From the NCBI GenBank assembly GCA_945904955.1, contig CAMDPO010000008.1, positions 3,177 to 67,176 on the forward strand: DNA of 64,000 nucleotides, read 5' to 3'. The DNA is from Rhizobium sp. Q54. GTDB lineage: Bacteria; Pseudomonadota; Alphaproteobacteria; UBA2966; CAIVPW01. Under the pieces are notes generated by a model. It made no database searches, was not told the origin of the DNA, and saw only the letters and a program-made list of their open reading frames with translations. This document shows positions 2,440-36,206 of this stretch, one piece after another; the first letter of the stretch is position 1; every line of letters starts with the position of its first letter. A program made the position numbers and the translations under genes.

Positions 2440-3011
2440 GCGGCCAGCACGCGCTCCGCGCCTTCCAGGTCGGCGCGGCAATTCATGTTGAGGAACGGGT
2501 CGCCGTTCCGCGTGGAGAAGTCCACGACAGCCATTTCGCAGCGTCCCAGAAACCGCATCACCGAACGCTCGCCGGTGGGATCTTCCAACGTCGCGCGCAG
2601 TGCGGTTGCCACGCGCGTCGACCAGATCGCACAGACGGGGTGGACGCGATCGTTGGTGCGCGCGACGGCAACGTCGGCGCAGGCATCCGCCAAGCGAGAT
2701 ACGACATCCAGCGGAAGGAACGGCGTGTCGCACGGGAACGTCGCGACCGTGGCGTGACCGAGGCGCATCGCCCATTCGAGCGCCGCGAGGATTCCGGCCA
2801 GCGGCCCCTGGAAATCTCCAATTGGATCAGCTAGTTGAGGAAACGGCGCGGGCAACGCGACGTTGGTTGAAATGGCGAGATCGTCCACCTGCGGCGCTAC
2901 CCGCGCGACGACGCGATCGAGCAGCGCAACGCCCTGGAGGGGCACCAAAGCTTTGGACGTGCCCATGCGGCGCGAGCGGCCCCCGGCCAGGATGACTCCG
3001 GCGCGCGTCAC
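2436..3011 (-). CDS. mobA: molybdenum cofactor guanylyltransferase (MobA-like)
   Basis: The N-terminal motif VILAGGRSRRMGTSKALVPL matches the MobA LAGGxxxRMG signature. Its GTG start overlaps the nasA TGA stop (GTGA), which suggests translational coupling to the nitrate reductase gene. Confidence 0.6.
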   Translation of the reverse strand: MTRAGVILAGGRSRRMGTSKALVPLQGVALLDRVVARVAPQVDDLAISTNVALPAPFPQLADPIGDFQGPLAGILAALEWAMRLGHATVATFPCDTPFLPLDVVSRLADACADVAVARTNDRVHPVCAIWSTRVATALRATLEDPTGERSVMRFLGRCEMAVVDFSTRNGDPFLNMNCRADLEGAERVLAA

Positions 3012-5662
3012 GCGGGCACCTGGGCGCGATTCTCGGCAACGAGTGTTTTGAGCTCGGGAATGCACGAACCGCAGTTCGTGCCGGCTTGCAGCAAGCGACC
3101 GATGCTGGGCACGTCCACCGCAGCCTTGCTGCGCAAGGCGGCGACGATGCCGTTGATGCCCACGGAGAAGCAGGAGCAGACGACGCGGCCACGCTCCTCG
3201 GTCGCACCGGCGGCGCGACCGCTCAACAAGGTCGGCCGCTCATCCGCTGCGATTGCGACCGGCGAGGCAAAGCGCTCCAGCATCCATTCGCGCGGCGGCA
3301 ACGAACCCGGTGGGCCGGCAAACAAGCACCCGTGCACGACCCCGTCGGCGATGTGCGCAATGCGCAGCGCACCGCGACGGGGATCGAAGCTCTCGATGAT
3401 GTCGTCCCGTTCGGATGCGGCAAGCAAGGCGCGCCATTGCGTCGCTGCGTCCGCACTGGTGTCGGCGAGCTCGTAGAGGTAGCCGCCGTCGACCTTGGCC
3501 CGCGTCCAGTAGAGGACGTCGCGCGGCCGGAAGCGTTCGCGCACCAAGAGGAACCCGACCGCCGCCACCGCGATGGGCGCAACATCGACGGGCGTGTGCT
3601 TCAGCTCCGGCTGACCGGAATGGGCGTCGGTGGCGGGATTCACGAGCCGCCCGGCGACGCAGTCGGCCGAGAATGCATCGCTCCAGTGCATGGGCAGAAA
3701 GACGCTGCCCGGCGCCTGGTCGAGGGTGGTGCGCGCGCGGGCGATCGCCGTGCCCCAGGCGCTGGCGACGCGCACCAAGCCACCGGGGACCAGTCCGTGC
3801 ACATTGGCATCAGCCGGGTGCACGTCGAGGCAAGGCTCGGGCGCGTGGCGCGACAGGCGCGCGACGCGTCCGCTCTGGGACATGGTGTGCCACTGGTCGC
3901 GCAGCCGGCCGGTGTTGAGGCACAGCGGACGCTCGGGCGTCGTGGCGTATGCCGGCGCGATCTGTTCGGTGGCGACGAAGCGTCCGCGGCCGTCGGGTGT
4001 GGGGAAGTGGCCGTCGGCGAGGAGCCGCTTGGACTCGCCCGGAATGGGCCACTGCACGGGACGGAGAGACTCGTACTCGCCCGCCGCGATGTCGGCGAGG
4101 CCGCCGAGGTTGAACAAGCGCTCGCCGGAGTTCTCGAACGCAGAGAGGCGGGCGTGCTCGCGGAAGATTTCGACCGGTGTTTGATAGGGGAACGCAGAGG
4201 CGAAGCCCATGCGCCGGCCGACCTCGGCGAACATCCACCAGTCGGCGCGCGCCTCGCCGGGTGGCGCGCGGAAGGCGCGCTGGCGCGAGATGCGGCGCTC
4301 AGAGTTTGTGACGGTGCCGCTCTTCTCGCCCCACGCGGCGGCGGGCAGCAGCACGTGGGCGAACGCCGCGGTGTCGGTCTCGGCGACGCAATCGGAGACG
4401 ACGACCAGCGGGCAGCGCCCCAAGGCTTCGCGCACGCGTCCGGCATTCGGCATGCTGACCGCCGGATTGGTGGCGGCGATCCAGATGGCGCGGATGTCGC
4501 CCTTGTGGACTGCCTCGAACATGTCGATGGCCTTCGGGCCTGCTTTCGTCGCTATGCGGGGCGCGTCCCAGAAGCGCCGCACGCGGTCGATCGCGGCTGC
4601 ATCGTCGAACGACATGTGGGCGGCGAGCTGATTGGCGAGCCCGCCGACCTCGCGGCCGCCCATGGCGTTCGGCTGGCCGGTCAGAGAGAACGGTCCGGCG
4701 CCGGGCTTGCCGATGCGCCCGGTCGCCAAATGGCAGTTGAGGATTGCGTTGACCTTGTCGGTGCCGCGCGAGGACTGGTTGACGCCCTGGGAGTAGGCGC
4801 TGACCGTGCGCGGCGTGGCGGCAAACCACCGGAAGAACTGCTCGACGTCGGCGCGGGCGATCTGACACCCAGCTGCAACGGCCTCGATGTCGGGGGCGTC
4901 GGCCCGCGCGGCGGCAAGTGACGTGGCAAAACCGGTGGTGTGCGCGGCCACGTAGGCGTCATCGATCGCGCCGTGATCGGCCAGGTAGACCAGGAGGCCG
5001 TTCCAGAGAAGCACATCCGTGCCGGGCGCAATCGCCAGGTGCAGGGTGGCGTCGGCGCAGGTCGCGGTCTTGCGCGGGTCGATGACGACGACCTTGGTGC
5101 CATGCTCGGCCGCCGCGGCCGTCAGGCGGTGATAGAGGATCGGGTGGCACCAAGCGGTGTTCGCGCCGACCAGGACGACCAGGTCGGCGAGTTCGAGGTC
5201 CTCGTAGCAGCCGGGCACGATGTCCTCGCCGAACGCGCGGCGGTGGCCCGCGACACTCGACGCCATGCAGAGGCGCGAGTTGGTGTCGATGGCCGCCGAG
5301 CCGAGGAAGCCCTTCATCAGCTTGTTGGCGACGTAGTAGTCCTCGGTCAGAAGCTGGCCAGACACATAGAACGCCACGGAGCCGGGGCCGTACCGCTCGA
5401 TCGTTTCTTGAAACTGGCGCGCGACCAGATCGAGGGCGGCGTCCCAGCTCGCGCGCGCGCCATGCACCATCGGGTACAAGAGGCGGCCATCGAGGCCCAG
5501 CGTGTCGCCGAGGGCCGACCCTTTGGAGCAGAGCTTGCCGAAGTTCGCCGGGTGCGCGACGTCGCCCGAGACGGCGCTGGCCGCGTCGACGCGCACGCCA
5601 CAGCCAACCCCGCAGTACGGACAGGTGGTCAGCGTCGCGCCCTCGCGCGACGCATCGGTCAC
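3008..5662 (-). CDS. nasA: assimilatory nitrate reductase catalytic subunit (molybdopterin oxidoreductase)
   Basis: N-terminal 4Fe-4S motif TCPYCGVGCG and molybdopterin-oxidoreductase motifs throughout. A C-terminal BFD-like [2Fe-2S] motif is present (CSCF...CGSCIPEL). The GTG start overlaps the nirD stop (GTGA). Confidence 0.85.
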   Translation of the reverse strand: MTDASREGATLTTCPYCGVGCGVRVDAASAVSGDVAHPANFGKLCSKGSALGDTLGLDGRLLYPMVHGARASWDAALDLVARQFQETIERYGPGSVAFYVSGQLLTEDYYVANKLMKGFLGSAAIDTNSRLCMASSVAGHRRAFGEDIVPGCYEDLELADLVVLVGANTAWCHPILYHRLTAAAAEHGTKVVVIDPRKTATCADATLHLAIAPGTDVLLWNGLLVYLADHGAIDDAYVAAHTTGFATSLAAARADAPDIEAVAAGCQIARADVEQFFRWFAATPRTVSAYSQGVNQSSRGTDKVNAILNCHLATGRIGKPGAGPFSLTGQPNAMGGREVGGLANQLAAHMSFDDAAAIDRVRRFWDAPRIATKAGPKAIDMFEAVHKGDIRAIWIAATNPAVSMPNAGRVREALGRCPLVVVSDCVAETDTAAFAHVLLPAAAWGEKSGTVTNSERRISRQRAFRAPPGEARADWWMFAEVGRRMGFASAFPYQTPVEIFREHARLSAFENSGERLFNLGGLADIAAGEYESLRPVQWPIPGESKRLLADGHFPTPDGRGRFVATEQIAPAYATTPERPLCLNTGRLRDQWHTMSQSGRVARLSRHAPEPCLDVHPADANVHGLVPGGLVRVASAWGTAIARARTTLDQAPGSVFLPMHWSDAFSADCVAGRLVNPATDAHSGQPELKHTPVDVAPIAVAAVGFLLVRERFRPRDVLYWTRAKVDGGYLYELADTSADAATQWRALLAASERDDIIESFDPRRGALRIAHIADGVVHGCLFAGPPGSLPPREWMLERFASPVAIAADERPTLLSGRAAGATEERGRVVCSCFSVGINGIVAALRSKAAVDVPSIGRLLQAGTNCGSCIPELKTLVAENRAQVPA

Positions 5663-6006
5663 CGGAGCTCGGACAACGACAGCCAGATGCGGCCGTCGCG
5701 GACTTCTGCCGCCACGGTCGGCACGCTGCCCTCGTCCGCTCCTTCGGCCTTGCCGGTGCCGAGGTTGATGACCCAGTTGTGCAGGGGACACGTCACCGAC
5801 GTGCCGTGGACAATGCCCTGGGACAGCGGCCCACCTTTGTGGGGGCAGCGGTCGTGCAGGGCGAAGATGGTGTCTTCAGAGGTGCGGAATACCGCGACGC
5901 AGCCGGCCGGCGTCTTGACGACGCGGGCGCCGCGCAGGGGAACGTCCGTCACCGCACCGACGTCGCGCCAAACGGCCGCGGGCCGCACCAGCGCGTGGGC
6001 GTTCAT
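5659..6006 (-). CDS. nirD: nitrite reductase small subunit (Rieske-type)
   Basis: 115 aa with the Rieske motif CPHKGGPLS...CPLH. Its start shares an ATGA overlap with the nirB stop. Confidence 0.85.
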   Translation of the reverse strand: MNAHALVRPAAVWRDVGAVTDVPLRGARVVKTPAGCVAVFRTSEDTIFALHDRCPHKGGPLSQGIVHGTSVTCPLHNWVINLGTGKAEGADEGSVPTVAAEVRDGRIWLSLSELR

Positions 6007-8465
6007 TCCGCCGCCTGAAGCGGCGTGAGATCGGCCAGGGGCCGGAACTCGTGGGCGTCTTTGCCCGCCGCGCGCTGGGCCCAGGGGTCTTCCTGGGAGA
6101 ACTTCTGTGCGTAGACGAAGCGCTCGAACAGAGCCTTACGCCGCTCGACGTCTTCCATGATCTGCTTGCGGATCGTGTCGATGCCGACGCGGGCGGCCCA
6201 CTTGTAGATGCGCTCCAGGTAGCGACCCTGCTCTCGATAGAGCTGCACCAGCGCAACGATGACTTCGAGCGCGTCATCCTGGGTGGCGACGTGGCCGAGC
6301 GCCTCGGTGCCCTTGATGTCGAGGCCTGCGGCACCCGCGAACACGATGTCGTAGCCGGAGTCGACGCAGATGACGCCGACGTCCTTGCAGGTCGCCTCAG
6401 CGCAATTGCGCGGGCAGCCCGACACGGCCATCTTCACCTTGGCGGGCGTCCACGAGCCCCACATGAACTTCTCGATGCGCACGCCAAGGCCGGTCGAATC
6501 CTGCGTGCCGAAGCGGCACCATTCCTTGCCGACACACGTCTTCACCGTGCGCAGCGCCTTGCCGTAGGCGTGCCCGGAGACGAGCCCGGCGGCGTTGAGA
6601 TCGGACCACACCGCGGGCAGGTCTTCTTTCTTGATGCCGAGCATGTCGATGCGCTGGCCGCCGGTCACTTTCACCGCGGGGATGGCGAACTTGTCGACCA
6701 CGTCGGCGATGGCGCGCAGCTCGTTGGCGGTCGTCATGCCGCCCCACATGCGCGGCACCACCGAATAGGTGCCATCGCGCTGGATGTTGGCGTGGACGCG
6801 CTCGTTGATGTAGCGCGACTGGTTGTCATCGACGTATTCGCCGGGCCAGGTGGCGAGCAGGTAGTAGTTCAGCGCCGGGCGGCACTTGGCGCAGCCGCCG
6901 GAGCTCTTCCATTCCAGCGACTGCATCAGCGCCGGAATCGACTTCAGCTCCTTGGCGACGATGAGGCGGCGAACATCGTCGTGGCTGAGCGTCGTGCAGG
7001 TGCACATCGCCTGGGAGGCGCTTGGGTGATACGCGTCACCCAGCTGCAAGTGCAGCAACTTTTCGACCAGGCCCGTGCAGGTGCCGCAGCTCGCCGATGC
7101 CTTGGTGTGGGCGCGCACCTCGGCAAGCGACTTGAGCTTCTTGTCGGTGATCGCCTTGCAGATCTTGCCCTTGGGGATGCCGTTGCAGCCGCAGATCTCG
7201 GCGTCGTCGGCGAGGGCTGCAACGGCGGCGCTAGGGTCCATGGCGGCGCCCGCCTGCACCGTCGGTCCGAAGATGAGGGTGTCACGCATCGCGGTGATGT
7301 CGGTGCCGCGGCGCAGCAAGTCGAAGAACCAGGCGCCGTCGGCGACATCGCCGTACAGGACGATACCGATGACCTTGTTGTCCTTGAGCACGATGCGCTC
7401 GTAGACGCCGCGCGCCGCGTCGCGGAACACGACTTCCTCGCGGTCGGCGCCATCGGCGAAGTCGCCGGCCGAGAACAGGTGGATGCCGGTGACCTTGAGC
7501 TTGGTGGCGGTGGCGCTCGGCGCGAAGGCCGCGCCTTTGTCGCCACTGAGTTGCGCCGCAACGACGTTGGCCATCTCGTAGAGGGGTGCGACAAGTCCGT
7601 ATGCCTGGCCGAACGCCTCGGCGCATTCGCCCACGGCGAAGACGTCCGGATCGGAGGTGTGCATCGTCGCGTCGACGACGATGCCGCGATTGACGGTGAT
7701 GCCCGCGTCCTTGGCCAGTGCGGCGTTGGGGCGGATACCGACGGCCATGACGACAAGATCGGCCGGAATCTCGGTGCCGTCTTCGAGGAGCACCGCGCAC
7801 ACGCGCTTCTCGCCCAGGATGGCCTTGGTGTTGGCCTTGGTCACGACGTTGATGCCGCGCGATTCGATCGCCTTGCGCAGCAGGTGTCCGGCAGTCGGGT
7901 CGAGCTGGCGTTCCATCAGAGTCGGCATCAGATGCACGACGGTGACGTTCATGCCCTGGTCGCGCAGACCGGCCGCCGCTTCGAGTCCGAGCAGGCCGCC
8001 GCCGATGACCACGGCGTTGCCGCGCGATTTCGCCACCAGCAGCATGGCGTGGACGTCGTCGAGGTCGCGGTAGGTCAGCACGCCGGCGAGGTTGTGGCCG
8101 GGCACCGGGATGATGATCGGCTGCGAGCCGGTAGCGATGATGAGCTTATCGTATTCGGCGGTGGTGCCGTTCTCGGCCGTCACCGTGCGGGCGGCACGAT
8201 CGATCTTCACCACCTTCATGCCCTTGTAGAGCATGACGTTGTGCTCGATGTACCAGCCGTCGCCGTGGATGACGATCTCGTCGAACGTCTTCTCGCCGGC
8301 GAGCACCGGCGACAGCATGATGCGGTCGTAGTTGACGCGCGGCTCGGCGTTGAAAATCGTCACGGCGTAGATGCCGGGCGACGTCTCAAACAGGCGCTCG
8401 AGCGCGCGGCCCGGCGCCATGCCGTTGCCGATGACGACCAGCCGCTGGAGCGTGGCTGCGCTCAT
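6003..8465 (-). CDS. nirB: NAD(P)H-dependent assimilatory nitrite reductase large subunit
   Basis: 820 aa. N-terminal FAD/NAD Rossmann motif (VVIGNGMAPG), BFD-like 2Fe-2S cysteines, and a sirohaem/4Fe-4S nitrite/sulfite reductase domain with CxxxxxC...CxxxC motifs. Confidence 0.9.
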   Translation of the reverse strand: MSAATLQRLVVIGNGMAPGRALERLFETSPGIYAVTIFNAEPRVNYDRIMLSPVLAGEKTFDEIVIHGDGWYIEHNVMLYKGMKVVKIDRAARTVTAENGTTAEYDKLIIATGSQPIIIPVPGHNLAGVLTYRDLDDVHAMLLVAKSRGNAVVIGGGLLGLEAAAGLRDQGMNVTVVHLMPTLMERQLDPTAGHLLRKAIESRGINVVTKANTKAILGEKRVCAVLLEDGTEIPADLVVMAVGIRPNAALAKDAGITVNRGIVVDATMHTSDPDVFAVGECAEAFGQAYGLVAPLYEMANVVAAQLSGDKGAAFAPSATATKLKVTGIHLFSAGDFADGADREEVVFRDAARGVYERIVLKDNKVIGIVLYGDVADGAWFFDLLRRGTDITAMRDTLIFGPTVQAGAAMDPSAAVAALADDAEICGCNGIPKGKICKAITDKKLKSLAEVRAHTKASASCGTCTGLVEKLLHLQLGDAYHPSASQAMCTCTTLSHDDVRRLIVAKELKSIPALMQSLEWKSSGGCAKCRPALNYYLLATWPGEYVDDNQSRYINERVHANIQRDGTYSVVPRMWGGMTTANELRAIADVVDKFAIPAVKVTGGQRIDMLGIKKEDLPAVWSDLNAAGLVSGHAYGKALRTVKTCVGKEWCRFGTQDSTGLGVRIEKFMWGSWTPAKVKMAVSGCPRNCAEATCKDVGVICVDSGYDIVFAGAAGLDIKGTEALGHVATQDDALEVIVALVQLYREQGRYLERIYKWAARVGIDTIRKQIMEDVERRKALFERFVYAQKFSQEDPWAQRAAGKDAHEFRPLADLTPLQAAE

Positions 8466-10174: not shown

Positions 10175-11491
10175 CTAGACCGCGACCTTCTTGATGGCGA
10201 GGCTCTTCAGGTAGGCCATCGGATCCTCGGGATCGAAGACCTTGCCGTCGAACCACGTCTCCTTGCCGCGCGACGTGCTGGTCGGGATCTGGTCCTTGGC
10301 GACGTTCAGGGCGACGGCCGCCTCACGCCACAGGTCCTCGCGGTTGACCTTGTTGACGAGCGCCTTGATGTCGAGCGTCGGCTCGAAGTAGCCCCAGCGC
10401 ATGTCCTCGGTCAGGAACCACGTGTCGTGGCTCTTGAACGGATAGGACGCGTTCTCGTTCCAGTACTTCATGTACTGGGTCGAGTCCTTCACGACGCGGC
10501 CGTCGCCGTAGTCGATCACGCCCACGGCGCGATCCTTAATGTCGGCGACCGGAACATTGAACCACTGGCGGCGGCTGACGATCTCGGCCAGGCCTTCGCG
10601 GTTCTTGTCAGCCCACTGCTGGGCCTCCATGACGGCCATCAAGATGGCCTTGGCCGCCTTCGGATACTTATCGACCCACTCGGCGCGCATGCCGAGGGCC
10701 TTCTCCGGATGGTGCTTCCACAGCTCGCCCGTCATCAGGGCGCTATAGCCGATCTTCTGATTGACGAGCTGATGGTTCCACGGCTCGCCGACGCAGAAGC
10801 ACTCGGTGTTGCCGACCTTCATGTTCGCCACCATCTGCGGCGGCGGCACCACGATCATCGACACGTCCTTGTCGGGGTCGATGCCGCCGGCGGCGAGCCA
10901 GTAGCGCATCCACAAGTCGTGGGTGCCGCCCGGGAAGGTGACGGCGATGTTGACCGCCTCGCCCTTGGCGCGCTTGGCGGCGAACGCCGCCTTGAGCGGC
11001 GAGGAGTCCATCGTCACCTTGAGCGACTTGTATTCCTCGGCGACCGAGATGGCCTGCGCGTCCACGTTCAGGCGCGCCAACAGGTACATCGGCACCGGCA
11101 CGTTGTTGGTCACCTTGCCGGTCGAAATCAGGTAGGGCATCGGCGACAGGATGTGCGCGCCATCGATGCCGTTGCGCTCGCCGCCCAGCACCAGGTTGTC
11201 GCGCGTCGTGCCCCACGAAGCTTGCTTGGAGACCTCGATGTCCGGCATGCCGTACTTGGCGAAGATGCCGTTCTCCTTGGCGATGATCAGCGGCGCAGCA
11301 TCCATCAGCGCGATGTAGCCGAGGATCGCCTTCTTGACCTCGGGGCCGGTTGCTTGCGCGAACACGCCCGAAGGGAATGCGCTGTTCACCGCCGAAACCA
11401 ACGCAGTAGCGCCAGCCAGCTTGGCGGCGCGTGTGACCAACGACCGGCGTGAAACGCTGCGCTGCATGCCCGGACCAATCTTCGTCGTCAT
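10175..11491 (-). CDS. nasF: nitrate ABC transporter periplasmic substrate-binding protein (NrtA/NasF)
   Basis: Tat signal (RRSLVTRAAKLAGATAL) on an NrtA-like body. The start ATG at complement 11491 is preceded by a GGGAGA ribosome-binding site; the longer ORF to 11800 is rejected. Confidence 0.8.
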   Translation of the reverse strand: MTTKIGPGMQRSVSRRSLVTRAAKLAGATALVSAVNSAFPSGVFAQATGPEVKKAILGYIALMDAAPLIIAKENGIFAKYGMPDIEVSKQASWGTTRDNLVLGGERNGIDGAHILSPMPYLISTGKVTNNVPVPMYLLARLNVDAQAISVAEEYKSLKVTMDSSPLKAAFAAKRAKGEAVNIAVTFPGGTHDLWMRYWLAAGGIDPDKDVSMIVVPPPQMVANMKVGNTECFCVGEPWNHQLVNQKIGYSALMTGELWKHHPEKALGMRAEWVDKYPKAAKAILMAVMEAQQWADKNREGLAEIVSRRQWFNVPVADIKDRAVGVIDYGDGRVVKDSTQYMKYWNENASYPFKSHDTWFLTEDMRWGYFEPTLDIKALVNKVNREDLWREAAVALNVAKDQIPTSTSRGKETWFDGKVFDPEDPMAYLKSLAIKKVAV

Positions 11492-11532
11492 CGATGCAAT
11501 CTCCCTTCGTGCCCCTCTGCCGGGCGCCCATA

Positions 11533-11578
11533 AGAAACGTCGCGCGTTCGGAGGTTTGCTCCGCGCCGTCCACGCGAC
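11533..11578 (-). terminator. terminator-like hairpin plus U-tract in the nasF leader (possible NasT antitermination target)
   Basis: On the minus strand, gtcgcg...ggag-caaac-ctcc...cgcgac folds as a nested hairpin followed by GUUUCUU, about 45 nt upstream of the nasF ribosome-binding site. Confidence 0.3.
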
Positions 11579-11684
11579 ACCGTTGTCGTGGGGGACCGCC
11601 GTTGGCCCGATGGTTCGCGACACGCCGCGAGAGCAGCAGGTCACGACATCATTGCCGTGGGCCGCGCTGCTCACCCTCCCAATA

Positions 11685-11699
11685 GCAAGGGCGGTGCCA
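11685..11699 (-). promoter_or_regulatory. candidate sigma-54 (-24/-12) promoter for the nasF operon
   Basis: The minus strand reads TTGGCAC-CGCCC-TTGCT, which matches TGGCAC-N5-TTGC exactly. It sits about 190 nt upstream of the nasF ATG. Confidence 0.45.
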
Positions 11700-11820
11700 A
11701 CCGGACGGCGGCAAAAAGTAATTTTGGGACAAGCACTTACGCGGCCTGCGACGGGCCGTCGCAGGCTCGCGCAGCCTATTCTTTGGGCGAGCGGCTGCAC
11801 ACTGCCTACAGCGTGGGCAG

Positions 11821-20917: not shown

Positions 20918-21046
20918 GACGCTCGCTCGACGCAAACCTGTGCATCCCGTGAAATCAGCTTTGTTCCCGTGCCGAGTGCCGCTACGCTTGACCGCAGGGG
21001 GCGTCCCGTGCCGAGCTTCTTGGCGCGCGGAGACACACGGATTTTC

Positions 21047-22555
21047 ATGAACGAGACCACCCCAGCTTCAAACCGCCCGGTAGCGGAGCGGCTGACGAGC
21101 GCGCTCGCCCTGAACCTCGCCAAGGCGTCCGCCTTCCTGGCGACGGTCTCGCTGAACGAGCCGCGCCACGGCAACGGCCGCGCCGCCGCCTGGTTCGTTG
21201 CCGCCCTCGGCGCTAACATCCTGACCGCGGGCGCATATTTCGTCGTCAGCACCCCGGTGGCCAAGTTCTTCGAGGTCTTCGGCTTCTTCCCCTCGCCGGT
21301 TTGGCCGGGCGCAGGCATCGCGCTGTTCGCCGTTCTCGTCGGCGGCTGGACCGTGGCGCCCGGCATCTTCATCGGCTCCTCCGCCGCGAACGCCGTCTTG
21401 TTTGCGGCGCCCGCTGAACCGATGATCCTTATTTCGATCACCAATACGCTAGGACCGATTGTCGGCGGGCTCCTGCTGCGGCGGTCGTTCCCCCCGCGCT
21501 CCCCCGTCTTCTTGCTGGGCGACGTCGGCCGCTTGATGCTCTATGGCGTGCTGGTGCACGCCGGCATCACCGCGCTGGGCGGCACCCTGGCGCAGACTCT
21601 GTTCAACGATACGACCGACGCACCGTTCCGCCTCTTCGCGGCGTGGTTGCTGTCCGATGCGGCCGGAGTCTTGCTGATCGGCGCACCCGCAATCCTGTGG
21701 TGGATCGACCGCCGCGTCATCGAGCGGCAGCATTGGCGCGAGGTCCTGATCGTCTCGGTACTCGCCCTCTCGGTGGGTGGGTCGCGCCTGCTGCTCCCGG
21801 AGGGCTACGAGCTGCCGGCCGGCGTTCCGGTGCTGGTGACGATGTGCTGCGCTTGGCTGGTGGCGCGCTTCTATCCGCGCGACGCCACGACCCTGTTTGC
21901 GCTGGTCCTGGCGCTCGTTCTGGCGGCCAACATCATCAAGCCAGAAGGAATGCTGGCGTTCAGTCCGTCGAACGTGAGCTGGTTCCTCGGCATCGCCGCG
22001 GTCGTCGGCATGCTCAACGTGCTGCTCATCGGCGCCATCATGGAAGAACGCGCCGTGGCGACGCGGCGCATCTCCCAGGACTTGGTCACCGGACTGCCGA
22101 ACCGCGCCAGCTTCCTGTCCGTCGCGGCGCGCGAGCTCGGCCGCGCTCAGACCTATAACCGGCCGCTGTCGCTGATCACCTTCGATATCGACGGCTTCCG
22201 CTCGGTCAATGCGCGTCACGGCAGCATGGTCGGCGACGCGGTGCTCAACGCGATTGCCGGACACGCACGCGCCTGGTTGCGTCCGCTCGACGTGCTGGCG
22301 CGCATCGGCGACGACGAGTTCGCCATCCTGATGGTCGAGACGGATCAGAAGTCCTCGGCGGCGCTCGCCGAGCAGCTGCGCGTCACCATCGCGACGACCC
22401 CCATCGAGATCAACGGTGCCGTCGTCGAAGTCACCGTCAGCATCGGCGTCACCGGCGGTCGCTCCGGCGATACGATCGAGTCCGTGCTCGACCGCGCCAA
22501 CGCCTCGCGCCACATCGCCCAGCAGGCGGGCCGCAACCGAGTCGCCGCCGCCTAG
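21047..22555 (+). CDS. MASE1-domain membrane protein with a C-terminal GGDEF domain (degenerate A-site GDDEF, intact RxxD I-site)
   Basis: N-terminal multi-TM region with MASE1-like VWPGAGIALFAVL. The GGDEF-domain motifs read ...RPLDVLARIGDDEF. Confidence 0.75.
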   Translation: MNETTPASNRPVAERLTSALALNLAKASAFLATVSLNEPRHGNGRAAAWFVAALGANILTAGAYFVVSTPVAKFFEVFGFFPSPVWPGAGIALFAVLVGGWTVAPGIFIGSSAANAVLFAAPAEPMILISITNTLGPIVGGLLLRRSFPPRSPVFLLGDVGRLMLYGVLVHAGITALGGTLAQTLFNDTTDAPFRLFAAWLLSDAAGVLLIGAPAILWWIDRRVIERQHWREVLIVSVLALSVGGSRLLLPEGYELPAGVPVLVTMCCAWLVARFYPRDATTLFALVLALVLAANIIKPEGMLAFSPSNVSWFLGIAAVVGMLNVLLIGAIMEERAVATRRISQDLVTGLPNRASFLSVAARELGRAQTYNRPLSLITFDIDGFRSVNARHGSMVGDAVLNAIAGHARAWLRPLDVLARIGDDEFAILMVETDQKSSAALAEQLRVTIATTPIEINGAVVEVTVSIGVTGGRSGDTIESVLDRANASRHIAQQAGRNRVAAA

Positions 22556-28533: not shown

Positions 28534-28794
28534 ATGGCACATAAGAAAGCCGGTGGCTCCACGCGCAACGGCCGCGATTCAGCGGGCAAGCGCCTTGGCG
28601 TAAAGAAGTTCGGCGGCGAGCACGTCATCTCGGGCAACATCCTCGTGCGCCAGCGCGGCACCGAGTATCACCCGGGCCCGAACGTCGGCATCGGCCGCGA
28701 CCACACTCTGTTCGCCACCGCCGACGGCCAAGTGAAGTTCAAAGTCACGACCGGCGGCCGCCGCTACATCTCGGTGGATTCGAAGACCGAGTAG
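28534..28794 (+). CDS. rpmA: 50S ribosomal protein L27
   Basis: [29 protein letters not shown]. Confidence 0.9.
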
Positions 28795-29028: not shown

Positions 29029-29256
29029 CTATCGATCCGCCTGGGGAGGATCCTCGGCCGCGAACGTGAGCAACTCCCCCGGCTGGCACTCGAGCGCCTG
29101 ACAGATCGCCTCGAGAGTCGAGAAGCGCACGGCCTTCGCCTTGCCGGTCTTGAGGATCGACAGATTGGCCAGGGTGATGCCGATGCGATCGGCGAGCTCG
29201 GTGAGCGTCAGGCGGCGCTGATGCAGCATCTCGTCGAGCTTCACGATGATCGGCAC
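29029..29256 (-). CDS. XRE-family (Cro/C1-type) helix-turn-helix regulator
   Basis: HTH_3 motif LTLTELADRIGITLANLSILKTGKAKAVRFSTLEAICQAL. I chose a GTG start; the longer ORF reaches 29334. Confidence 0.6.
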   Translation of the reverse strand: MPIIVKLDEMLHQRRLTLTELADRIGITLANLSILKTGKAKAVRFSTLEAICQALECQPGELLTFAAEDPPQADR

Positions 29257-29258
29257 GC

Positions 29259-29591
29259 CTACACCGTGCCGTCGAGGTCGGCGCGCAGGCGCGGCGCGTT
29301 CTCGGCCAGGAACGGCTCGCCGTCCCCGGCGCAAGCGACGATGGCGAGCAGGCGCTGCAGGATGACGTGGTTGAGCGGCACGGCGACGACGCCGACCACC
29401 AGGACCAAGCGCATGCCGAAGACGACCGCCGCGTCGCCGGCGGCACCCAGGCTGTCGAAGACAGCGCCCGCCAAGAACGCGCTGGCGACGAGCAGGATCA
29501 GGATCATCGCGCCGGTGACGGGGTTCACGACGATGAGCGCCCGCAGCACCGTGCGGGTGAGCGACAAGGCAGCGGGGTATTGGGAAGCCAT
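29259..29591 (-). CDS. small membrane protein (DUF2975-like partner of the XRE regulator)
   Basis: 110 aa with three hydrophobic helices, lying immediately upstream of the XRE gene on the same strand. Confidence 0.4.
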   Translation of the reverse strand: MASQYPAALSLTRTVLRALIVVNPVTGAMILILLVASAFLAGAVFDSLGAAGDAAVVFGMRLVLVVGVVAVPLNHVILQRLLAIVACAGDGEPFLAENAPRLRADLDGTV

Positions 29592-29672: not shown

Positions 29673-29849
29673 AACGTGCTTTGGCGACCGGCCGCGTACC
29701 AGCTTGTTGCGCGGACTCCTAGGGTGCAGCCCGGACTGTACGGAACCGCGACTACGGCTAGGTTGCCGCTCGGGCGCTTCCCCCGCGCCCTAAAGAACGT
29801 CCCCAAAGAAAGCCCTCCGCCTTCCCCCGGCGCGAGGGCTTTCGCCTGT

Positions 29850-30140
29850 CAAGGGTCCGGAGAGCCGCGCGCGCAGAACTTCCGCTCCGTCCTGACGGCG
29901 ATCAGCGCTCGCCACGTCACCACCAGGCCCTATCGACCATGCACTAACGGCAAGGCCGAGCGCTTCATCCAGACAGCGTTGCGCGAGTGGGCCTACGCCA
30001 ACTCCGACGCGACCTCAAACCATCGCCTTGCAGACATGCCAGCCTGGCTGCACTGGTACAATCACCATCGGCCACACGCCGGCATCAACGCATCAACTCC
30101 TGCCAGCAGGCTGAACAACCTGCTTGGCAGCGACAGCTAG
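29850..30140 (+). pseudogene. transposase remnant (C-terminal integrase-core/rve fragment, IS481/IS3-like)
   Basis: ...RPYRPCTNGKAERFIQTALREW...WLHWYNHHRPHAGINASTPASRLN matches the end of DDE integrase-core domains. There is no N-terminal HTH/DDE portion, and upstream of this the frame translates to junk. Confidence 0.55.
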
Positions 30141-30175
30141 CGCGCCTTCGGCGCGGCGAGAGAGGAGGTTTCTCG

Positions 30176-31309
30176 CTAAGCGACGAGGTTCGTTGTCGCG
30201 CGCAGGCGGCGGGCCAGGATGGCAGCGAGGTTGAGGTTGATGCGGGCGAGGACGGCGCTGTCGAGGCCCTTTACGCCGGCGAAGCGCGACGGCTGGATGC
30301 GCAGCATGTCGCCGTTGGAGAGGGCGACGACGTCGGCGGTGCGGCCTTCGCCAAGCAGCATGCTCATCTCGCCGATGAGGTCGCCGGGGCCGAGCGTCGT
30401 GACGATGGTCTTGCGGCCCATGGGGCTGGTCTTCACCACCTGCAGGAAGCCGGTGCGCACCAGGTAGACGTCGCGGCCGCGCGCCGCGGCGTCGATGACC
30501 TGGTCGCCGACGTGGAAGTCGACCTCGGGCACGCCTTCGAGAAAGGCCTCGATGTCCGGGAGCGCGATGCCGCGGAAGAGGTCCATGTTGAGGAGCGAGG
30601 GCGAGGCATCGACCATGTCGTGGGCCGGGAGCGGGCTGGTGTCGATGCCGGCCGGCGCCTCGACGGGGCCCTCGGTGAGCTCGCGGAAGAAGCGCGCCGC
30701 GGCGGGCACGTGGCTCTGGCCGTGCTCGAGCAGGGCCGGCAGCAGACGCGAGCGGATCGAGGCGAGGTGCTCGAGGTCGTGGGCGACCAGGCACATCGGC
30801 ACGCCGATGCCGCCGCGCGGATAGCGGAAGTGCGGGGCATGGCAGCGGAAGCCCAGGCGCTCGTATTGCGAGACGGATTCGGGATCGACGTCGATAAAGA
30901 CGAACCAGGGCGCCGGGTACTTGGCGAGCTCGTCGACGACGGCGCCGATCAGGGCGGCGAACGCGGGCGTGGTCCGGTGGCTGGACAGCACCGCGGCCTT
31001 GCGCACCTGGAAGACGTTCTTCTTCGAGAACGCGTCCGCAACCGGGGTGAGGTTGAGGGTCTGGACGCGTTCGGGATCGACCTCCGCCGCGCCCCACCAG
31101 TCGATGGCGACGGTGCCGACCGGCTCCTTGCCGTCATAGGCGAGCAGGATGGTGGCCTTGGCATCGGCCTTCTCGACGATGCCGCGGGCGGCCGTCATGC
31201 CCGTGATGTCGTAGCCGAGGTCGCCGACCAGGACAGTGTAGCGCAGCTGATAGGCGTCGCGGCGCGCCTCGTCCGTGCGCGCGGCCTCGATCCGGAAGTC
31301 CGCCCCCAT
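30176..31309 (-). CDS. GNAT-fold N-acyltransferase (Acetyltransf_5/OlsB/N-acyl-amino-acid-synthase-like) fused to a C-terminal cyclic-nucleotide-binding domain
   Basis: The N-terminus (AYQLRYTVLVGDLGYD...ILLAYDGKEPVGTVAID...) resembles the FeeM/OlsB/LuxI-like acyltransferase fold. The C-terminal ~120 aa (FRGIALPDIEAFLEGV...GDLIGEMSMLLGEGRTADVVALSNGDMLRI) is a CAP-type cNMP-binding beta-roll. The start ATG at complement 31309 follows a GGGAGAG ribosome-binding site. Confidence 0.65.
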   Translation of the reverse strand: MGADFRIEAARTDEARRDAYQLRYTVLVGDLGYDITGMTAARGIVEKADAKATILLAYDGKEPVGTVAIDWWGAAEVDPERVQTLNLTPVADAFSKKNVFQVRKAAVLSSHRTTPAFAALIGAVVDELAKYPAPWFVFIDVDPESVSQYERLGFRCHAPHFRYPRGGIGVPMCLVAHDLEHLASIRSRLLPALLEHGQSHVPAAARFFRELTEGPVEAPAGIDTSPLPAHDMVDASPSLLNMDLFRGIALPDIEAFLEGVPEVDFHVGDQVIDAAARGRDVYLVRTGFLQVVKTSPMGRKTIVTTLGPGDLIGEMSMLLGEGRTADVVALSNGDMLRIQPSRFAGVKGLDSAVLARINLNLAAILARRLRATTNLVA

Positions 31310-31445
31310 CGACCCACTCTCCCTGGGCCAAACTCTAGCATCTTGGTTTGGCGGCAACAGGGGGGCGAGCGTAGGAAGGGCGCGCGTGCCGCGCGACGCC
31401 CGCGCGCGGTTGTCTTTCGGCCCGTTTGGCCGCATGTAACGCCCC

Positions 31446-32477
31446 ATGAAGTTCCTCGATCAGGCCAAGGTGGCCGTCCGCGCCGGCAAGGGCGGTCCCG
31501 GCGCCATGAGCTTTCGGCGCGAGAAGAATATGGAGTTCGGCGGGCCCCACGGCGGCAACGGGGGGCGCGGCGGCGACGTGTGGGCGGAGGCGTCGGCGGG
31601 GCTCAATACGCTGATCGATTTCCGCTACCAGCAGCACTTCAAGGCGCAGAACGGGGCGCCCGGCGGCGCCTACCTGCGCTCCGGTGCCAACGCCTCGGAC
31701 CTGGTGATGCGGGTGCCGCCCGGCACCGAGATCATCGACGACCTCACCGAAGAGGTGATCGGCGAACTGAACGAGCCGGGCGAGCGCATGCTGCTCGCCA
31801 AGGGCGGCGACGGCGGCATGGGCAACGCCCACTACAAGTCCTCGACCAATCGCGCGCCGCGCAAGACGACGCCGGGCTATCCCGGCGAGGAGCGCGAGCT
31901 GCGCCTGCGCCTGAAGCTGATTGCCGACGCGGGACTGGTCGGGCTGCCCAACGCCGGCAAGTCGACGTTCCTGCGGGCGGTGTCGCGCGCCAAGCCGAAA
32001 GTCGCCGACTATCCGTTCACGACGCTGCATCCGCATCTGGGCGTGGTGCGCGCCGGCGAGCGCGAGTTCGTGCTCGCCGACCTGCCCGGATTGATCGAGG
32101 GCGCCCATGAAGGCGTCGGCCTCGGCGATCGGTTCCTGGGGCACGTCGAGCGCTGCCGCGTGCTGCTGCACCTGGTCGATGCGACCCAGGACGACGTCGC
32201 CCTGGCGTGGCGCACGGTGCGCACGGAACTGAAAGCGTACGGCGCGGGGCTGTCCGAGAAGCCGGAAGTGCTGGCGCTGTCGAAATGCGACGCGCTGTCC
32301 GAGGACGAGGTCAAGAAAAAGCGCATGGCGCTGAAGCGCGCCGCCAAGCACGACGTGCTGCTCCTCTCCGCGGTGAGCGGCACCGGCGTCGAGCAGGCGT
32401 TGCACACCATCTTCGCCATCGTACGGCCCGACCCGAAGGCGGCCGTGGGCAAAGGCGATGAGGCGTGGACGCCGTGA
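31446..32477 (+). CDS. obgE: GTPase ObgE/CgtA
   Basis: N-terminal Obg fold ([27 protein letters not shown]) and G-domain motifs (GLPNAGKST). Confidence 0.9.
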
Positions 32478-34902: not shown

Positions 34903-35532
34903 TTGAACGAAGCAGCAGAGGGACCTAGCGGTCCTTTGGCCGGCCTCCCCGCAACGGCACTGGGTCGCGTTGGCCTCCTGGGCGGATCGTTCAATCCGGC
35001 CCACCCCGGGCATTTGCACATCAGCCAGCTGGCGCTCGACATCCTCGGGCTCGACGCGGTGTGGTGGCTGGTGTCGCCGCAGAACCCGCTCAAGTCGACG
35101 GACGGGATGGAGCCCCTCGCCGGCCGCCTGGACGAGGCGCGCGAGCGGGCAGCGCCGGAGCCGCGCATCTTCGTCAGCGACATGGAGCGCACCCTCGGCA
35201 CGCGCTATAGCGTCGATACGCTGTCGGCCCTGGTCGAGCGCTATCCGGCGACGCGCTGGGTCTGGATCATGGGGGCCGACAACCTATCTGAGCTGCATCG
35301 CTGGAAGGACTGGACCCGGCTGTTCGAGCTGGCGCCGGTTGCGGTGTTCGACCGGCCTACCTATTCTTTCAATGCCCTGCAAGGCGTGGCTGCGCGCCAG
35401 ATGGCGCAGCATCGCGTGACGCGCACCAACGCCAATACCCTCGCCGACATGAAGCCGCCGGCGTGGATGTTCCTGTGGAGCGCATTCGACCCGGCGTCGG
35501 CGACGGCGATCCGGGAGAGCAAACAACCCTGA
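34903..35532 (+). CDS. nadD: nicotinate-nucleotide adenylyltransferase
   Basis: GGSFNPAHPGHLHIS (HxGH motif). Confidence 0.8.
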   Translation: MNEAAEGPSGPLAGLPATALGRVGLLGGSFNPAHPGHLHISQLALDILGLDAVWWLVSPQNPLKSTDGMEPLAGRLDEARERAAPEPRIFVSDMERTLGTRYSVDTLSALVERYPATRWVWIMGADNLSELHRWKDWTRLFELAPVAVFDRPTYSFNALQGVAARQMAQHRVTRTNANTLADMKPPAWMFLWSAFDPASATAIRESKQP

Positions 35533-35537
35533 GCCAA

Positions 35538-36206
35538 ATGGAGAGAGCGATCCCCGCACCCAAGAAGACGAAGCCGAAGGCATCCGCTAGGCCGAAGGCA
35601 GAGGCAAAGAAGGCGCCCGCGCGCAAGCCCACCAAGGCATCGGCTGGCAAAGCTGGCGCCCGCAAGACGGGCGCCACCAAGACCAAGCCGTCCGCCCTCA
35701 AGACCAAGAACAAGAAGGCCTTTGCGGCGAAGCCGCGGAAGGCTGCGCAGCTGAAGGCGACGCGCCCGAAGGCGGCACCAAAGAAAGCGACGCCACCGAA
35801 GGCGCCGGCGGTCCGCAAGGCCCCTCCCAAAGCCGCGAAGCCGAAGGCCTCGGCGCCGCTTCTGAAGCTGGCGCTGCAGTCGCTCGACGACGATCAGGCG
35901 GTGGATGTCGCGACCATCGACCTGGAAGGCAAGACCAGCATCGCCGACCACATGATCGTCGCCTCAGGCCGCTCCCAGCGCCAGGTCGGCGCCATGGCCG
36001 TGCATCTGATGCAGCGCCTGAAGGCCGCCGGCTATCGCGGCATCCAGATCGAAGGCATGCCGCAGAACGATTGGGTCCTGGTCGATGCTGGCGATGTCAT
36101 CGTGCATTTGTTCCGGCCGGAAGTGCGCACGTTCTACAACCTCGAGAAGATGTGGTCGGTGGAGTTCAACGAGGCCGCAGCTGAAGCCGAGCAGGCGCTC
36201 GCCTGA
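35538..36206 (+). CDS. rsfS: ribosome silencing factor RsfS (iojap) with a ~110-aa Lys/Ala/Pro-rich N-terminal extension
   Basis: The C-terminal ~110 aa are typical RsfS (DDDQAVDVATIDLEGKTSIADHMIVASGRSQRQV...). The N-terminal half is a PKK/AKK/PAA low-complexity region with high GC3 in the same frame. Confidence 0.7.
   Translation: MERAIPAPKKTKPKASARPKAEAKKAPARKPTKASAGKAGARKTGATKTKPSALKTKNKKAFAAKPRKAAQLKATRPKAAPKKATPPKAPAVRKAPPKAAKPKASAPLLKLALQSLDDDQAVDVATIDLEGKTSIADHMIVASGRSQRQVGAMAVHLMQRLKAAGYRGIQIEGMPQNDWVLVDAGDVIVHLFRPEVRTFYNLEKMWSVEFNEAAAEAEQALA

Follow-up and report, generated by a model that had tools for sequence, protein, structure and literature searches.

We describe a protein of 377 residues that joins an N-terminal GNAT-fold acyltransferase module to a C-terminal cyclic-nucleotide-binding (CNB) domain. 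Both domains are present, the residues that bind a cyclic nucleotide (cNMP) are intact, both halves evolve under purifying selection, and the fusion is conserved across phyla. By analogy with known enzymes, we consider it quite possible, though short of probable, that the protein is a soluble signalling enzyme: an N-acyltransferase of the acyl carrier protein (ACP) type, acting on a small acceptor and switched by its CNB domain. The features of the gene and its surroundings are collected in Table 1; the window is the whole 64-kb stretch of DNA that was analysed, and the window gene and window protein are the gene under study and its product.

Table 1. Features of the gene, its product and its surroundings in the window.
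Feature	Position	Strand	Basis or remark
rpmA	28534-28794	+	
HTH_26 gene, then small membrane-protein ORF			between rpmA and the rve_3 ORF
Truncated integrase-core (rve_3) ORF	29676-30140		precedes the window gene in coordinate order
Window-specific DNA directly after the stop codon of the window gene, with the rve_3 fragment; context, outside the gene	29863..30175	+	blastn
Complete two-domain protein gene	30176..31309	-	ORF list, colinear relatives, dN/dS, GC3
CNB domain and C-terminal helix, residues 241-377	30179..30589	-	
Phosphate-binding cassette, residues 309-329: GDLIGEMSMLLGEGRTADVVA	30323..30385	-	aligned to PKG GELAIL...RTATV
Variable interdomain linker, residues 214-240, probably disordered	30590..30670	-	pLDDT, dN/dS, alignment
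Conserved helical extension of the N-terminal module, residues 178-213 (D178-x-x-H-L...S187)	30671..30778	-	conservation, predicted helices
GNAT-fold acyltransferase core, residues 1-177 (FeeM / Acetyltransf_5-like clade)	30779..31309	-	
Degenerate 'P-loop' after strand beta4, R112-T-T-P-A-F117	30959..30976	-	sequence read
Divergent intergenic region common to the window gene and obgE	31310..31445	.	sequence read; Shine-Dalgarno-like box
obgE	31446-32477	+	

The open reading frame lies where a preliminary description of this DNA had placed it, on the minus strand with its ATG at 31309-31307 and its stop codon at 30176-30178, and the gene is intact and under selection. Full-length colinear relatives exist at 99%, 90%, 70%, 37-43%, and 23% identity, the dN/dS of the gene is 0.21-0.26, and its GC3 of 0.92 is like that of the neighbouring genes. 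We rejected a 423-residue version starting at an in-frame ATG at 31447, which overlaps the obgE start, because homologues begin at the downstream methionine (P0001, P0002, and L002 all start at an MG(A)DF/MAGAF methionine), and this methionine has a Shine-Dalgarno-like box, GGGAGAG, at 31317-31323 on the minus strand, 7 nt upstream of 31309. Both the promoter of the gene and that of obgE presumably lie in the intergenic region that the two share; a G+C-rich hairpin is found there at 31388-31410, and no sigma-70 consensus was found when we looked for one in that region. Neither Rfam models nor a tRNA search gave a hit in the window.

The neighbourhood is as the preliminary description gave it, between rpmA and obgE and beside an IS remnant, the truncated ORF matching rve_3 in Pfam over its residues 79-142 (E-value 1.7e-16). 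The same description spoke of an inserted islet, and this holds only for the variable downstream neighbours. The DNA that directly follows the stop codon of the window gene has no blastn counterpart in locus L001, which is 90% identical, and the rpmA/obgE slot of a 70%-identical relative is without the IS fragment, the HTH gene or the membrane ORF. For the window gene itself the term does not fit, given its host-like GC3 and its presence in the same slot of that 70%-identical relative. The position between rpmA and obgE is kept in three genomes and is seen only in a close alphaproteobacterial clade; other members of the family are found elsewhere.

An N-acyltransferase had been proposed for the N-terminal module, and a profile search, which would have spoken against it had no such family given a significant hit, does not refute it. 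Residues 48-177 match the Pfam family FeeM (PF21926) with E-values of 6e-6 to 1e-5, a match that is significant yet lies just below the curated threshold (25.9 bits for the whole protein and 26.6 bits for the N-terminal half alone vs. a cut-off of 27, that is, 0.4-1.1 bits short). The L003 homologue scores 34.4 bits with the same model, and the precomputed Pfam annotation of P0001, which is 99% identical, includes PF21926. Across 141 relatives, 123 match FeeM (E <= 1e-3; best 1.5e-16), 89 match Acetyltransf_5, and one matches Autoind_synth. The window protein has no match to Acetyltransf_5 at E <= 1, and one of ten close-family members has one at E <= 0.01. The GNAT sub-fold common to FeeM and LuxI is present in the window protein. 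The helical extension that follows the core, with three short helices predicted at residues 179-184, 190-195, and 202-213, is also found in stand-alone relatives of ~215-250 aa; D178 is kept in 137 of the 141 relatives and S187 in 125. Position 141, a Cys in 118 of them, is a Val in the window protein.

Where the CoA-binding motif Q/R-x-x-G-x-G/A is expected, the window protein has RTTPAF. This degeneracy is family-wide, with a Gly at +3 in only 12 of the 141 members, and loss of the motif has been described as a typical trait of GNATs that depend on a carrier protein, FeeM and SbzI among them (PMC11685415). The degenerate motif, in the window protein as in its family, thus counts for a donor of the carrier-protein type as the most likely one. 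The long-chain N-acyl amino acid synthases to which FeeM belongs (PF21926, PF13444; TIGR03694, PEP-CTERM/exosortase-associated) resemble the window protein in several respects: FeeM is its top acyltransferase Pfam family, the CoA P-loop is lost in both, and the window protein has the N-terminal motif of the type R-x-x-V-[FY]-V-E-E-L-G. FeeM, however, stands alone, with about 190 aa and a gene that lies beside that for its carrier protein FeeL, whereas the window protein adds the helical extension, the linker, and the CNB domain, and no ACP gene is found near its gene. No PP-binding (acyl carrier protein) family appeared among the neighbouring genes scanned with Pfam, a scan that took in some of the small ORFs; the housekeeping AcpP could still be the donor. 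With the NCBIfam model for exosortase-associated acyltransferases, the window protein scores 15-16 bits vs. a cut-off of 112.

How general is the fusion? Both domains, in the same order, are carried by 100 of the 141 relatives and by all seven of a further set of longer ones, with examples in Alphaproteobacteria (the window, L001, L002), Desulfobulbaceae (L003), and Myxococcota (L004). In a wider search, 1709 cluster representatives match the N-terminal domain, and of those with the best scores ~70% carry the fusion. To judge from these sequences, the fusion is selected, not accidental, and GNAT-CNB, far from a rare one-off, is the architecture that prevails in a large and uncharacterised family. 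A metagenome scan with the N-domain alignment gave only three short loci. We found no curated NCBIfam model for the GNAT-CNB family, and a literature search found no paper on such a fusion, in line with the earlier remark that this arrangement was not known to have been characterised. Some members carry further fusions, to a SAM methyltransferase (P0092, P0105), a B12/radical-SAM domain (P0130), or a class I aminotransferase (P0155). The last was considered as a sign of an alpha-oxoamine-synthase or ceramide-like pathway and rejected, as NCBIfam places it with the class I methionine/aspartate-type aminotransferases. Another candidate, P0018, in which an ACP N-terminus precedes a fragment of the family, was rejected as a Rosetta-stone link to ACP; it comes from a 653-nt contig on which the fragment is followed by junk, and is therefore treated as a chimeric assembly.

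Could the enzyme instead modify proteins? The preliminary description had taken an AYQLRYTVLV-type motif as a signature common to LuxI-, FeeM- and OlsB-like N-acyltransferases. The motif is present, but it is not exclusive to N-acyl-signal synthases, since the family profile aligns SACOL1063 and YjcF, both acetyl-CoA GNATs, to it equally well. Against the PDB, the best matches of the family profile are the small acetyl-CoA GNATs SACOL1063, YjcF, and 3efa (E 1e-9 to 1e-7), with FeeM at only E 0.31, and Foldseek ranks SACOL1063 and YjcF first and FeeM 11th. Because acetyl-CoA GNATs outrank FeeM in both comparisons, the assignment to the FeeM clade is not exclusive. Such matches speak for a cNMP-regulated protein acyl- or acetyltransferase, an analogue of Pat with reversed domain order, whose targets would be protein lysines or N-termini. 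Protein acetyltransferases that combine cAMP control with a GNAT are established (PMC8556138), and the site between the translation genes rplU-rpmA and obgE, kept in three genomes, could suggest ribosome-associated targets. We regard this reading as unlikely: that site is confined to the close clade, the CoA-binding P-loop is degenerate, and the NCBIfam Pat model (NF058543) matches the window protein over profile positions 1-89 only, the CNB part, with 23 bits vs. a cut-off of 460. Moreover, most of the relatives fall in FeeM and Acetyltransf_5, both families of small-molecule acyltransferases, and the methyltransferase, radical-SAM, and aminotransferase fusions argue for metabolite chemistry. 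Together with a methyltransferase gene that abuts the L003 homologue, these fusions point to a small-molecule substrate, not a protein.

Among small-molecule enzymes, a LuxI-like synthase would make an AHL or a related quorum signal, its output gated by the intracellular cyclic nucleotide. In the profile search against the PDB, BjaI is found with E 5.7e-7; the stand-alone relative P0177 sits beside several LuxR-type (GerE) regulator genes, and the source annotation of two relatives reads 'N-acyl-L-homoserine lactone synthetase'. Since AHL synthases have the same fold as N-acyl amino acid synthases, a likeness in fold does not tell the two apart. What makes a LuxI-like synthase improbable is that the window protein, different in this from TofI, LasI, BjaI, and RpaI, has no match to Pfam Autoind_synth (PF00765) at E <= 1, that only one of its 141 relatives has such a match, and that no partner gene of the LuxR type adjoins the window gene. 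We know of no LuxI-type enzyme with a fused CNB domain, and a literature search found none. The similarity to OlsB and other aminolipid N-acyltransferases consists in the Acetyltransf_5 matches of the relatives and a weak N-terminal motif match to the OlsB model; with that model (NF052554), however, the window protein scores 12.3 bits vs. a cut-off of 350, over residues 4-35 only, and no olsA-like partner gene was seen.

The cNMP-binding domain announced for the C-terminal part is clearly there. Residues 264-344 match cNMP_binding (PF00027) with 59.8 bits (E 2.6e-16; curated cut-off 27.5 bits), an eight-stranded beta-roll is followed by a C-terminal helix, and GPGDLIGEMSMLLGEGRTADVVA is the segment that aligns with PKG and CAP at their phosphate-binding cassette. 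In CNB cassettes, Gly-Glu contacts the ribose 2'-OH and Arg-Thr/Ser-Ala the phosphate. A loss of these residues would have counted against the domain; G313, E314, R323, T324, and A325 are all present in the window protein. Among 100 fused relatives, G313 is conserved in 100, E314 in 86, R323 in 76, T/S324 in 69, and A325 in 64. As far as the cassette can be read, its R-T-A triplet leaves the specificity for cAMP vs. cGMP undecided.

We observe no conserved operon around the homologues, as no neighbour recurs in nine contexts (L003, L004, L081, L085, L086, L087/88, L089, L090, L092). The scattered links in these contexts are two cyclases, one cNMP-patatin gene, and the one methyltransferase gene already mentioned. 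The L081 homologue has a class III nucleotide cyclase gene 16 bp away and the L004 homologue another within about 1 kb, and a divergent gene for a cNMP-binding patatin lipase adjoins the L090 homologue. These neighbours would count in favour of a link to cNMP signalling.

For many bacterial beta-rolls of the CRP/FNR type the ligand is a different one, for instance haem, 2-oxoglutarate, or an Fe-S cluster. The CNB-like domain might likewise sense something other than cAMP or cGMP, or be a mere dimerisation or autoinhibitory module in an enzyme that is otherwise regulated or constitutive. Replacement of Arg323 in 24% and of Glu314 in 14% of the fused relatives agrees with this, and so does the lack of a cyclase gene in the window and in L001-L003, where tblastn with the L081 and L004 cyclases as queries found none; a further 20 genes of the window, scanned with Pfam, gave just a MASE1-GGDEF protein. 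On the other side stand the complete G-E...R-T-A cassette, the best sequence matches of the domain, which are to the genuine cNMP binders PKG, PKA-R, CRP, and SthK, and the cyclase genes beside two homologues; and the genome may well have a cyclase gene beyond the 64-kb window. We think that a different ligand, or none, has only a small chance of being right.

Pycsar effectors such as PycTIR also fuse a CNB domain to an effector domain, and the window protein might be an anti-phage effector of this kind, in which a CNB domain sensing cCMP or cUMP controls a toxic acyltransferase. PADLOC PycTIR models match residues 254-372 (E 1.3e-9), a cyclase beside P0008 matches the PycC models with 67 bits (PADLOC), and the IS fragment adjoins the window gene. 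Yet the PADLOC matches cover the generic CNB part only, the effector domain is a different one, and no cyclase adjoins the window gene. The locus is a core housekeeping one, with synteny between copies that are only 70% identical, host composition, and a dN/dS of 0.2, and the cyclases beside the L081 and L004 homologues, unlike the compact PycC enzymes, are large signalling proteins of an AAA_16/TPR or kinase-fused kind. An anti-phage role is, in our judgement, highly improbable.

For the switch in the proposed cNMP-gated N-acyltransferase, the best mechanistic template, by analogy, is Pat / KATmt (Rv0998, MSMEG_5458; 'type III GNAT'), which also has a CNB domain and a GNAT in one polypeptide, and in which cAMP binding to the CNB domain relieves autoinhibition of the GNAT and so activates the enzyme (PMC8556138). 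A precedent for a cAMP-gated GNAT therefore already exists in principle. The two proteins differ in domain order, CNB-GNAT in Pat vs. GNAT-CNB here, and in their GNATs: that of Pat, which has the CoA-binding motifs, acetylates protein lysines from acetyl-CoA, whereas that of the window protein belongs with the FeeM/Acetyltransf_5 clade and has a degenerate P-loop. We infer that the N-terminal module would take an acyl group, most likely from an ACP thioester and less likely from acyl-CoA, and pass it on to a small acceptor, probably an amino acid, whose amino group would receive it. The module would be connected by a flexible linker to a CAP/PKA-type CNB domain binding cAMP or cGMP, and ligand binding would move the conserved C-terminal helix and switch the acyltransferase, probably on, as in mycobacterial Pat. 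The linker has pLDDT <50 at residues 215-234, a dN/dS of 0.7-1.1 vs. about 0.2 in each of the two domains, and a poor alignment across relatives; the AF2 model, with a pTM of 0.52, gives no reliable picture of how the two domains lie to each other. We count against this main reading the sub-threshold FeeM score, the best matches to acetyl-CoA GNATs, V141, the absence of a nearby ACP, cyclase, or tailoring gene, and the unconserved neighbourhoods. Second-messenger-gated synthesis of an N-acylated metabolite, as the preliminary description had it, is what we would infer from the two modules.

Bacteria have important membrane lipids and signals in N-acyl amino acids, aminolipids, and AHLs, and the synthases of these compounds are generally viewed as unregulated or transcriptionally regulated. 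Cyclic nucleotides are known to act through transcription factors, ion channels, Pat-type protein acetylation, c-di-GMP turnover enzymes, and Pycsar effectors, among other outputs; with an acyltransferase wired to a cAMP/cGMP sensor, the cyclic-nucleotide signalling of bacteria would gain an output class that is new. It is a more tentative proposal that the family may form a widespread, unrecognised class of enzymes in which a cNMP signal leads directly to the making of an N-acylated small molecule, be it a lipid of the N-acyl amino acid type or a diffusible signal. If true, this would be post-translational control of lipid or signal biosynthesis by a second messenger, with no transcription factor between, and fused or adjacent methyltransferase, radical-SAM, or aminotransferase modules would tailor the product further in some lineages. 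The family is large and spans several phyla, so that the functional assignment of one member would annotate hundreds of proteins.

The gene between rpmA and obgE almost certainly encodes a two-domain protein, in which a GNAT acyltransferase module precedes a cyclic-nucleotide-binding (CNB) domain. The minus-strand ORF ends at 30176, and its first ATG in the ORF list (31447) would give 423 aa. We keep the start of the preliminary description, 31309, which gives 377 aa, because its nearest relatives in the database, P0001 (99% identical) and P0002 (90%), both have 377 aa and start MGADF, because the 70% identical copy at locus L002 starts MAGAF at the same position, and because a GGGAGAG box stands 7 nt 5′ of it. 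The GC3 of the gene (0.92, vs. 0.81-0.95 in other window genes) is the codon signature of its neighbors.

The Pfam model cNMP_binding matches residues 264-344 with E 2.6e-16, and a phmmer search of PDB sequences matches about 120 CNB-containing chains (E down to 7e-11), the best being PKG I, PKA regulatory subunits, CRP-family regulators, and the SthK channel. In that search, GEMSMLLGEGRTADV of the window protein aligns onto the PKG cassette GELAILYNCTRTATV, thus it retains both the Gly-Glu pair and the Arg-Thr-Ala triplet. G313 is conserved in all of 100 fused relatives, E314 in 86, R323 in 76, T/S324 in 69, and A325 in 64. The domain is predicted to bind a cyclic nucleotide, and we consider this probable; sequence does not distinguish cAMP from cGMP. 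That it is a CNB-like domain with another ligand, or with none, is unlikely. The C-terminal helix NLNLAAILARRL is strongly conserved, and invariant across the close family.

Which GNAT is the N-terminal module? FeeM matches the whole protein with 25.9 bits (E 1e-5) and the N-terminal half alone with 26.6 bits (E 6e-6), the Pfam gathering score being 27 bits. No NCBIfam model covers the whole protein; partial CNB matches are to CRP, Pat, and encapsulin 2B, and residues 4-67 have very weak matches to exosortase-associated acyltransferase and OlsB. Modeled alone from an 11-sequence alignment (pLDDT 83.9, pTM 0.81), the module is predicted to be a GNAT fold with a three-helix extension. Foldseek ranks SACOL1063 and YjcF at the top, TofI 5th, and FeeM 11th, and a family profile against PDB sequences finds SACOL1063 (E 9e-10), 3efa (4e-8), YjcF (1e-7), and the CoA-dependent AHL synthase BjaI (6e-7), with FeeM itself at only 0.31; both results are less specific as to GNAT clade. 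The N-acyltransferase motif AYQLRYTVLVGDLGY noted in the preliminary description is present, but it is not exclusive: it aligns to cfyiRkkVFveEqG of SACOL1063, and therefore marks GNATs beyond the N-acyl-signal synthases. We assign the module to the FeeM / Acetyltransf_5 clade on evidence from the family as a whole. Of 141 relatives, Pfam finds FeeM in 123 (best E 1.5e-16) and Acetyltransf_5 in 89, and a distant full-length homolog at locus L003 exceeds the curated cut-offs of FeeM (34.4 bits), Acetyltransf_10, and Acetyltransf_5. Autoind_synth is found in only 1, and the absence of this signal from the window protein makes a gated LuxI-type signal synthase quite improbable, even if the fold is compatible and LuxR-type regulator genes lie beside stand-alone relatives.

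Where CoA-using GNATs have the pyrophosphate-binding motif Q/R-x-x-G-x-G/A, the window protein has R112-T-T-P-A-F117, and only 12 of the 141 relatives have the +3 Gly. FeeM and SbzI, GNATs that depend on a carrier protein, are characterized by loss of this motif (PMC11685415). The loss favors an acyl-ACP donor, short of proof. A Pat-like protein acyltransferase, to which generic GNAT similarity and the placement of the gene among translation genes would point, is unlikely, as the CoA motif is degenerate and the clade found by Pfam speaks against it. As a separate observation, the F-x-F-x-D-C-x-P strand has Cys at position 141 in 118/141 relatives (including P0002), and Val in the window protein, P0001, and P0017. 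Either the structure tolerates the substitution, or this sublineage differs functionally.

The fusion is old, common, and fixed in domain order, as follows from profile-search counts, architectures, and taxon spread. A word-indexed search gave only ~10 full-length relatives. Searched exhaustively with a profile of just the N-domain (alignment A3), representatives of 50%-identity clusters give 1709 matches at E <= 1e-3, of which 805 have E <= 1e-10, and most of the best 150 of the 1709 are 360-400 aa long. Pfam finds a CNB domain in 100 of 141 of these best-scoring relatives, and in each of 7 longer proteins that were scanned on their own and have extra modules: receiver + GNAT + CNB (P0029), GNAT + CNB + SAM methyltransferase (P0092, P0105), GNAT + CNB + B12/radical-SAM (P0130), and class I aminotransferase + GNAT + CNB (P0155). 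Fused members occur in alphaproteobacterial MAGs (the window, L001, L002), in a Desulfobulbaceae MAG (L003, 23% identity across residues 7-373), and in an Enhygromyxa MAG (L004). Stand-alone relatives of ~215-250 aa keep the helical extension (D178, S187), and they are real: the stop codon of P0177 (234 aa, FeeM + Acetyltransf_5) lies mid-way in a 14-kb contig. In P0018 (149 aa, from a 653-nt ENA contig), the N-terminus is that of an AcpP-like acyl carrier protein, followed by a 50-residue family fragment (78% identity to the window protein) and then by unrelated Gly/Ala-rich sequence. If real, it would tie the family to ACP, but it is most likely a chimeric assembly.

Nei-Gojobori estimates of dN/dS for the window gene vs. 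L001 and L002 are 0.18-0.22 for the GNAT module, 0.20-0.25 for the CNB domain, and 0.7-1.1 for the 25-residue linker, which is also the low-confidence part of the predicted model. The two domains are kept under constraint, whereas the tether between them may vary freely.

The window is core chromosome, with genes for nitrate/nitrite assimilation, rplU-rpmA, obgE-proB-proA-nadD-rsfS-gpmI, ATP synthase, priA, and lpdA; coordinates are collected in the table.

Features of the window and of loci carrying relatives
Sequence	Feature	Positions	Strand	Remarks
Window	MASE1-GGDEF diguanylate cyclase gene	20969-22555	+	sole nucleotide-second-messenger enzyme among ~30 window genes scanned
Window	Ribosomal protein L21	27959-28531	+	Lys/Ala-rich C-terminal tail, ~90 aa
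Window	HTH_26 (Cro/C1-type) regulator	29029-29334	-	overlaps next ORF
Window	110-aa hydrophobic ORF	29259-29591	-	no Pfam match; GC3 0.95
Window	Integrase-core (rve_3) fragment ORF	29676-30140	+	end 35 bp from GNAT-CNB stop codon
Window	Window-specific DNA	29863-30175		no counterpart in L001 (blastn)
Window	GNAT-CNB gene	30176-31309	-	convergent with rpmA, divergent from obgE
Window	Codon of residue 141	30887-30889
Window	G+C-rich hairpin	31388-31410	+	8 pairs (7 G-C), then T-rich stretch
Window	RsfS ORF	35463-36206	+	Lys/Ala/Pro-rich N-terminal extension, ~130 aa, before RsfS domain (residues 137-231)
L002	DedA-like membrane protein gene	11141-11764
L081	Guanylate_cyc + AAA_16 + TPR gene	2083-5466	-	16 bp from homolog P0008
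L004	Kinase + AAA + GAF + cyclase gene	2025-7358	-	<= ~1 kb from homolog
L090	cNMP_binding + NTE_Ploop + patatin lipase gene	2263-4086	-	divergent from GNAT-CNB gene
L090	GNAT-CNB gene	4231-5484	+
L087	P0177 gene	8001-8705
L088	P0177 gene	4381-5085

The gene had been described as part of an inserted islet. The downstream DNA is indeed remodeled, with a probable IS scar, but in this lineage the gene itself has a stable place in the rpmA/obgE gap: at L001, whose protein is 90% identical, the arrangement is unchanged, HTH_26 gene and small membrane ORF included, and L002 has the DedA-like gene in place of these two. The integrase DNA is window-specific. In the integrase-fragment ORF, the first ~62 residues are not transposase-like, yet they are 79% conserved in L001, so the ORF probably combines native intergenic DNA with the scar. 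The HTH_26 gene and its hydrophobic partner resemble a pair of YozG-type regulator and membrane protein. A Pycsar-like defense effector is very improbable, as PADLOC matches are confined to the CNB part, no cyclase adjoins the gene, and it behaves as a housekeeping resident; no adenylate or guanylate cyclase gene is found among the ~30 genes scanned in the 64-kb window. Two further features of the region are the hairpin, within the 136-bp divergent region and ~35 nt 5′ of the obgE start codon, which may act as an attenuator or operator or may have arisen by chance in DNA this rich in G+C, and the L21 and RsfS extensions, both basic, low-complexity, and on ribosome-associated proteins.

Outside the window lineage, we find no conserved neighborhood in the loci compared. 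Some neighbors of homologs are suggestive: large class III nucleotide cyclase genes (L081, L004), the patatin gene (L090), and a methyltransferase gene abutting the L003 homolog, which mirrors the methyltransferase fusions. At L090, two cNMP-sensing lipid enzymes adjoin. P0177 is adjoined by 2-4 GerE/LuxR-type regulator genes, a haem-oxygenase-like gene, and a PEP-CTERM-domain gene, a layout that resembles a quorum-sensing-like signal locus.

Our best-supported reading, still tentative and a little short of an even call, is that the window protein is an N-acyltransferase gated by a cyclic nucleotide, with a small molecule as substrate; ligand, donor, acceptor, and direction of regulation are all inferred. 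Allosteric control of catalysis by the cyclic nucleotide is rather likely; a product of the N-acyl amino-acid type is possible but doubtful. Fusions to methyltransferase, radical-SAM, and aminotransferase modules make metabolite chemistry a better fit than protein modification, and the aminotransferase fusion, seen in one protein, would suggest an amino acid as acceptor. In the mycobacterial cAMP-GNAT Pat, a large rearrangement on cAMP binding takes a pseudo-substrate out of the GNAT active site (PMC8556138). Pat may serve as the template for gating here, where NLNLAAILARRL would be the obvious candidate for the moving element.

Source annotations read only 'cyclic nucleotide-binding domain-containing protein', 'hypothetical protein', or 'predicted GNAT family N-acyltransferase', and literature searches with relevant term combinations find nothing on a GNAT-CNB fusion, in agreement with the preliminary description, which knew of no characterization of this arrangement. 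Type III GNATs are ligand-gated, responding to cAMP, amino acids, or NADP, so that ligand gating of a GNAT is not in itself new. What is new with respect to them is the GNAT clade (FeeM / Acetyltransf_5-like), the reversed domain order, and, probably, the metabolite output. The finding is no shock, but it is a good, testable lead for the specialist.
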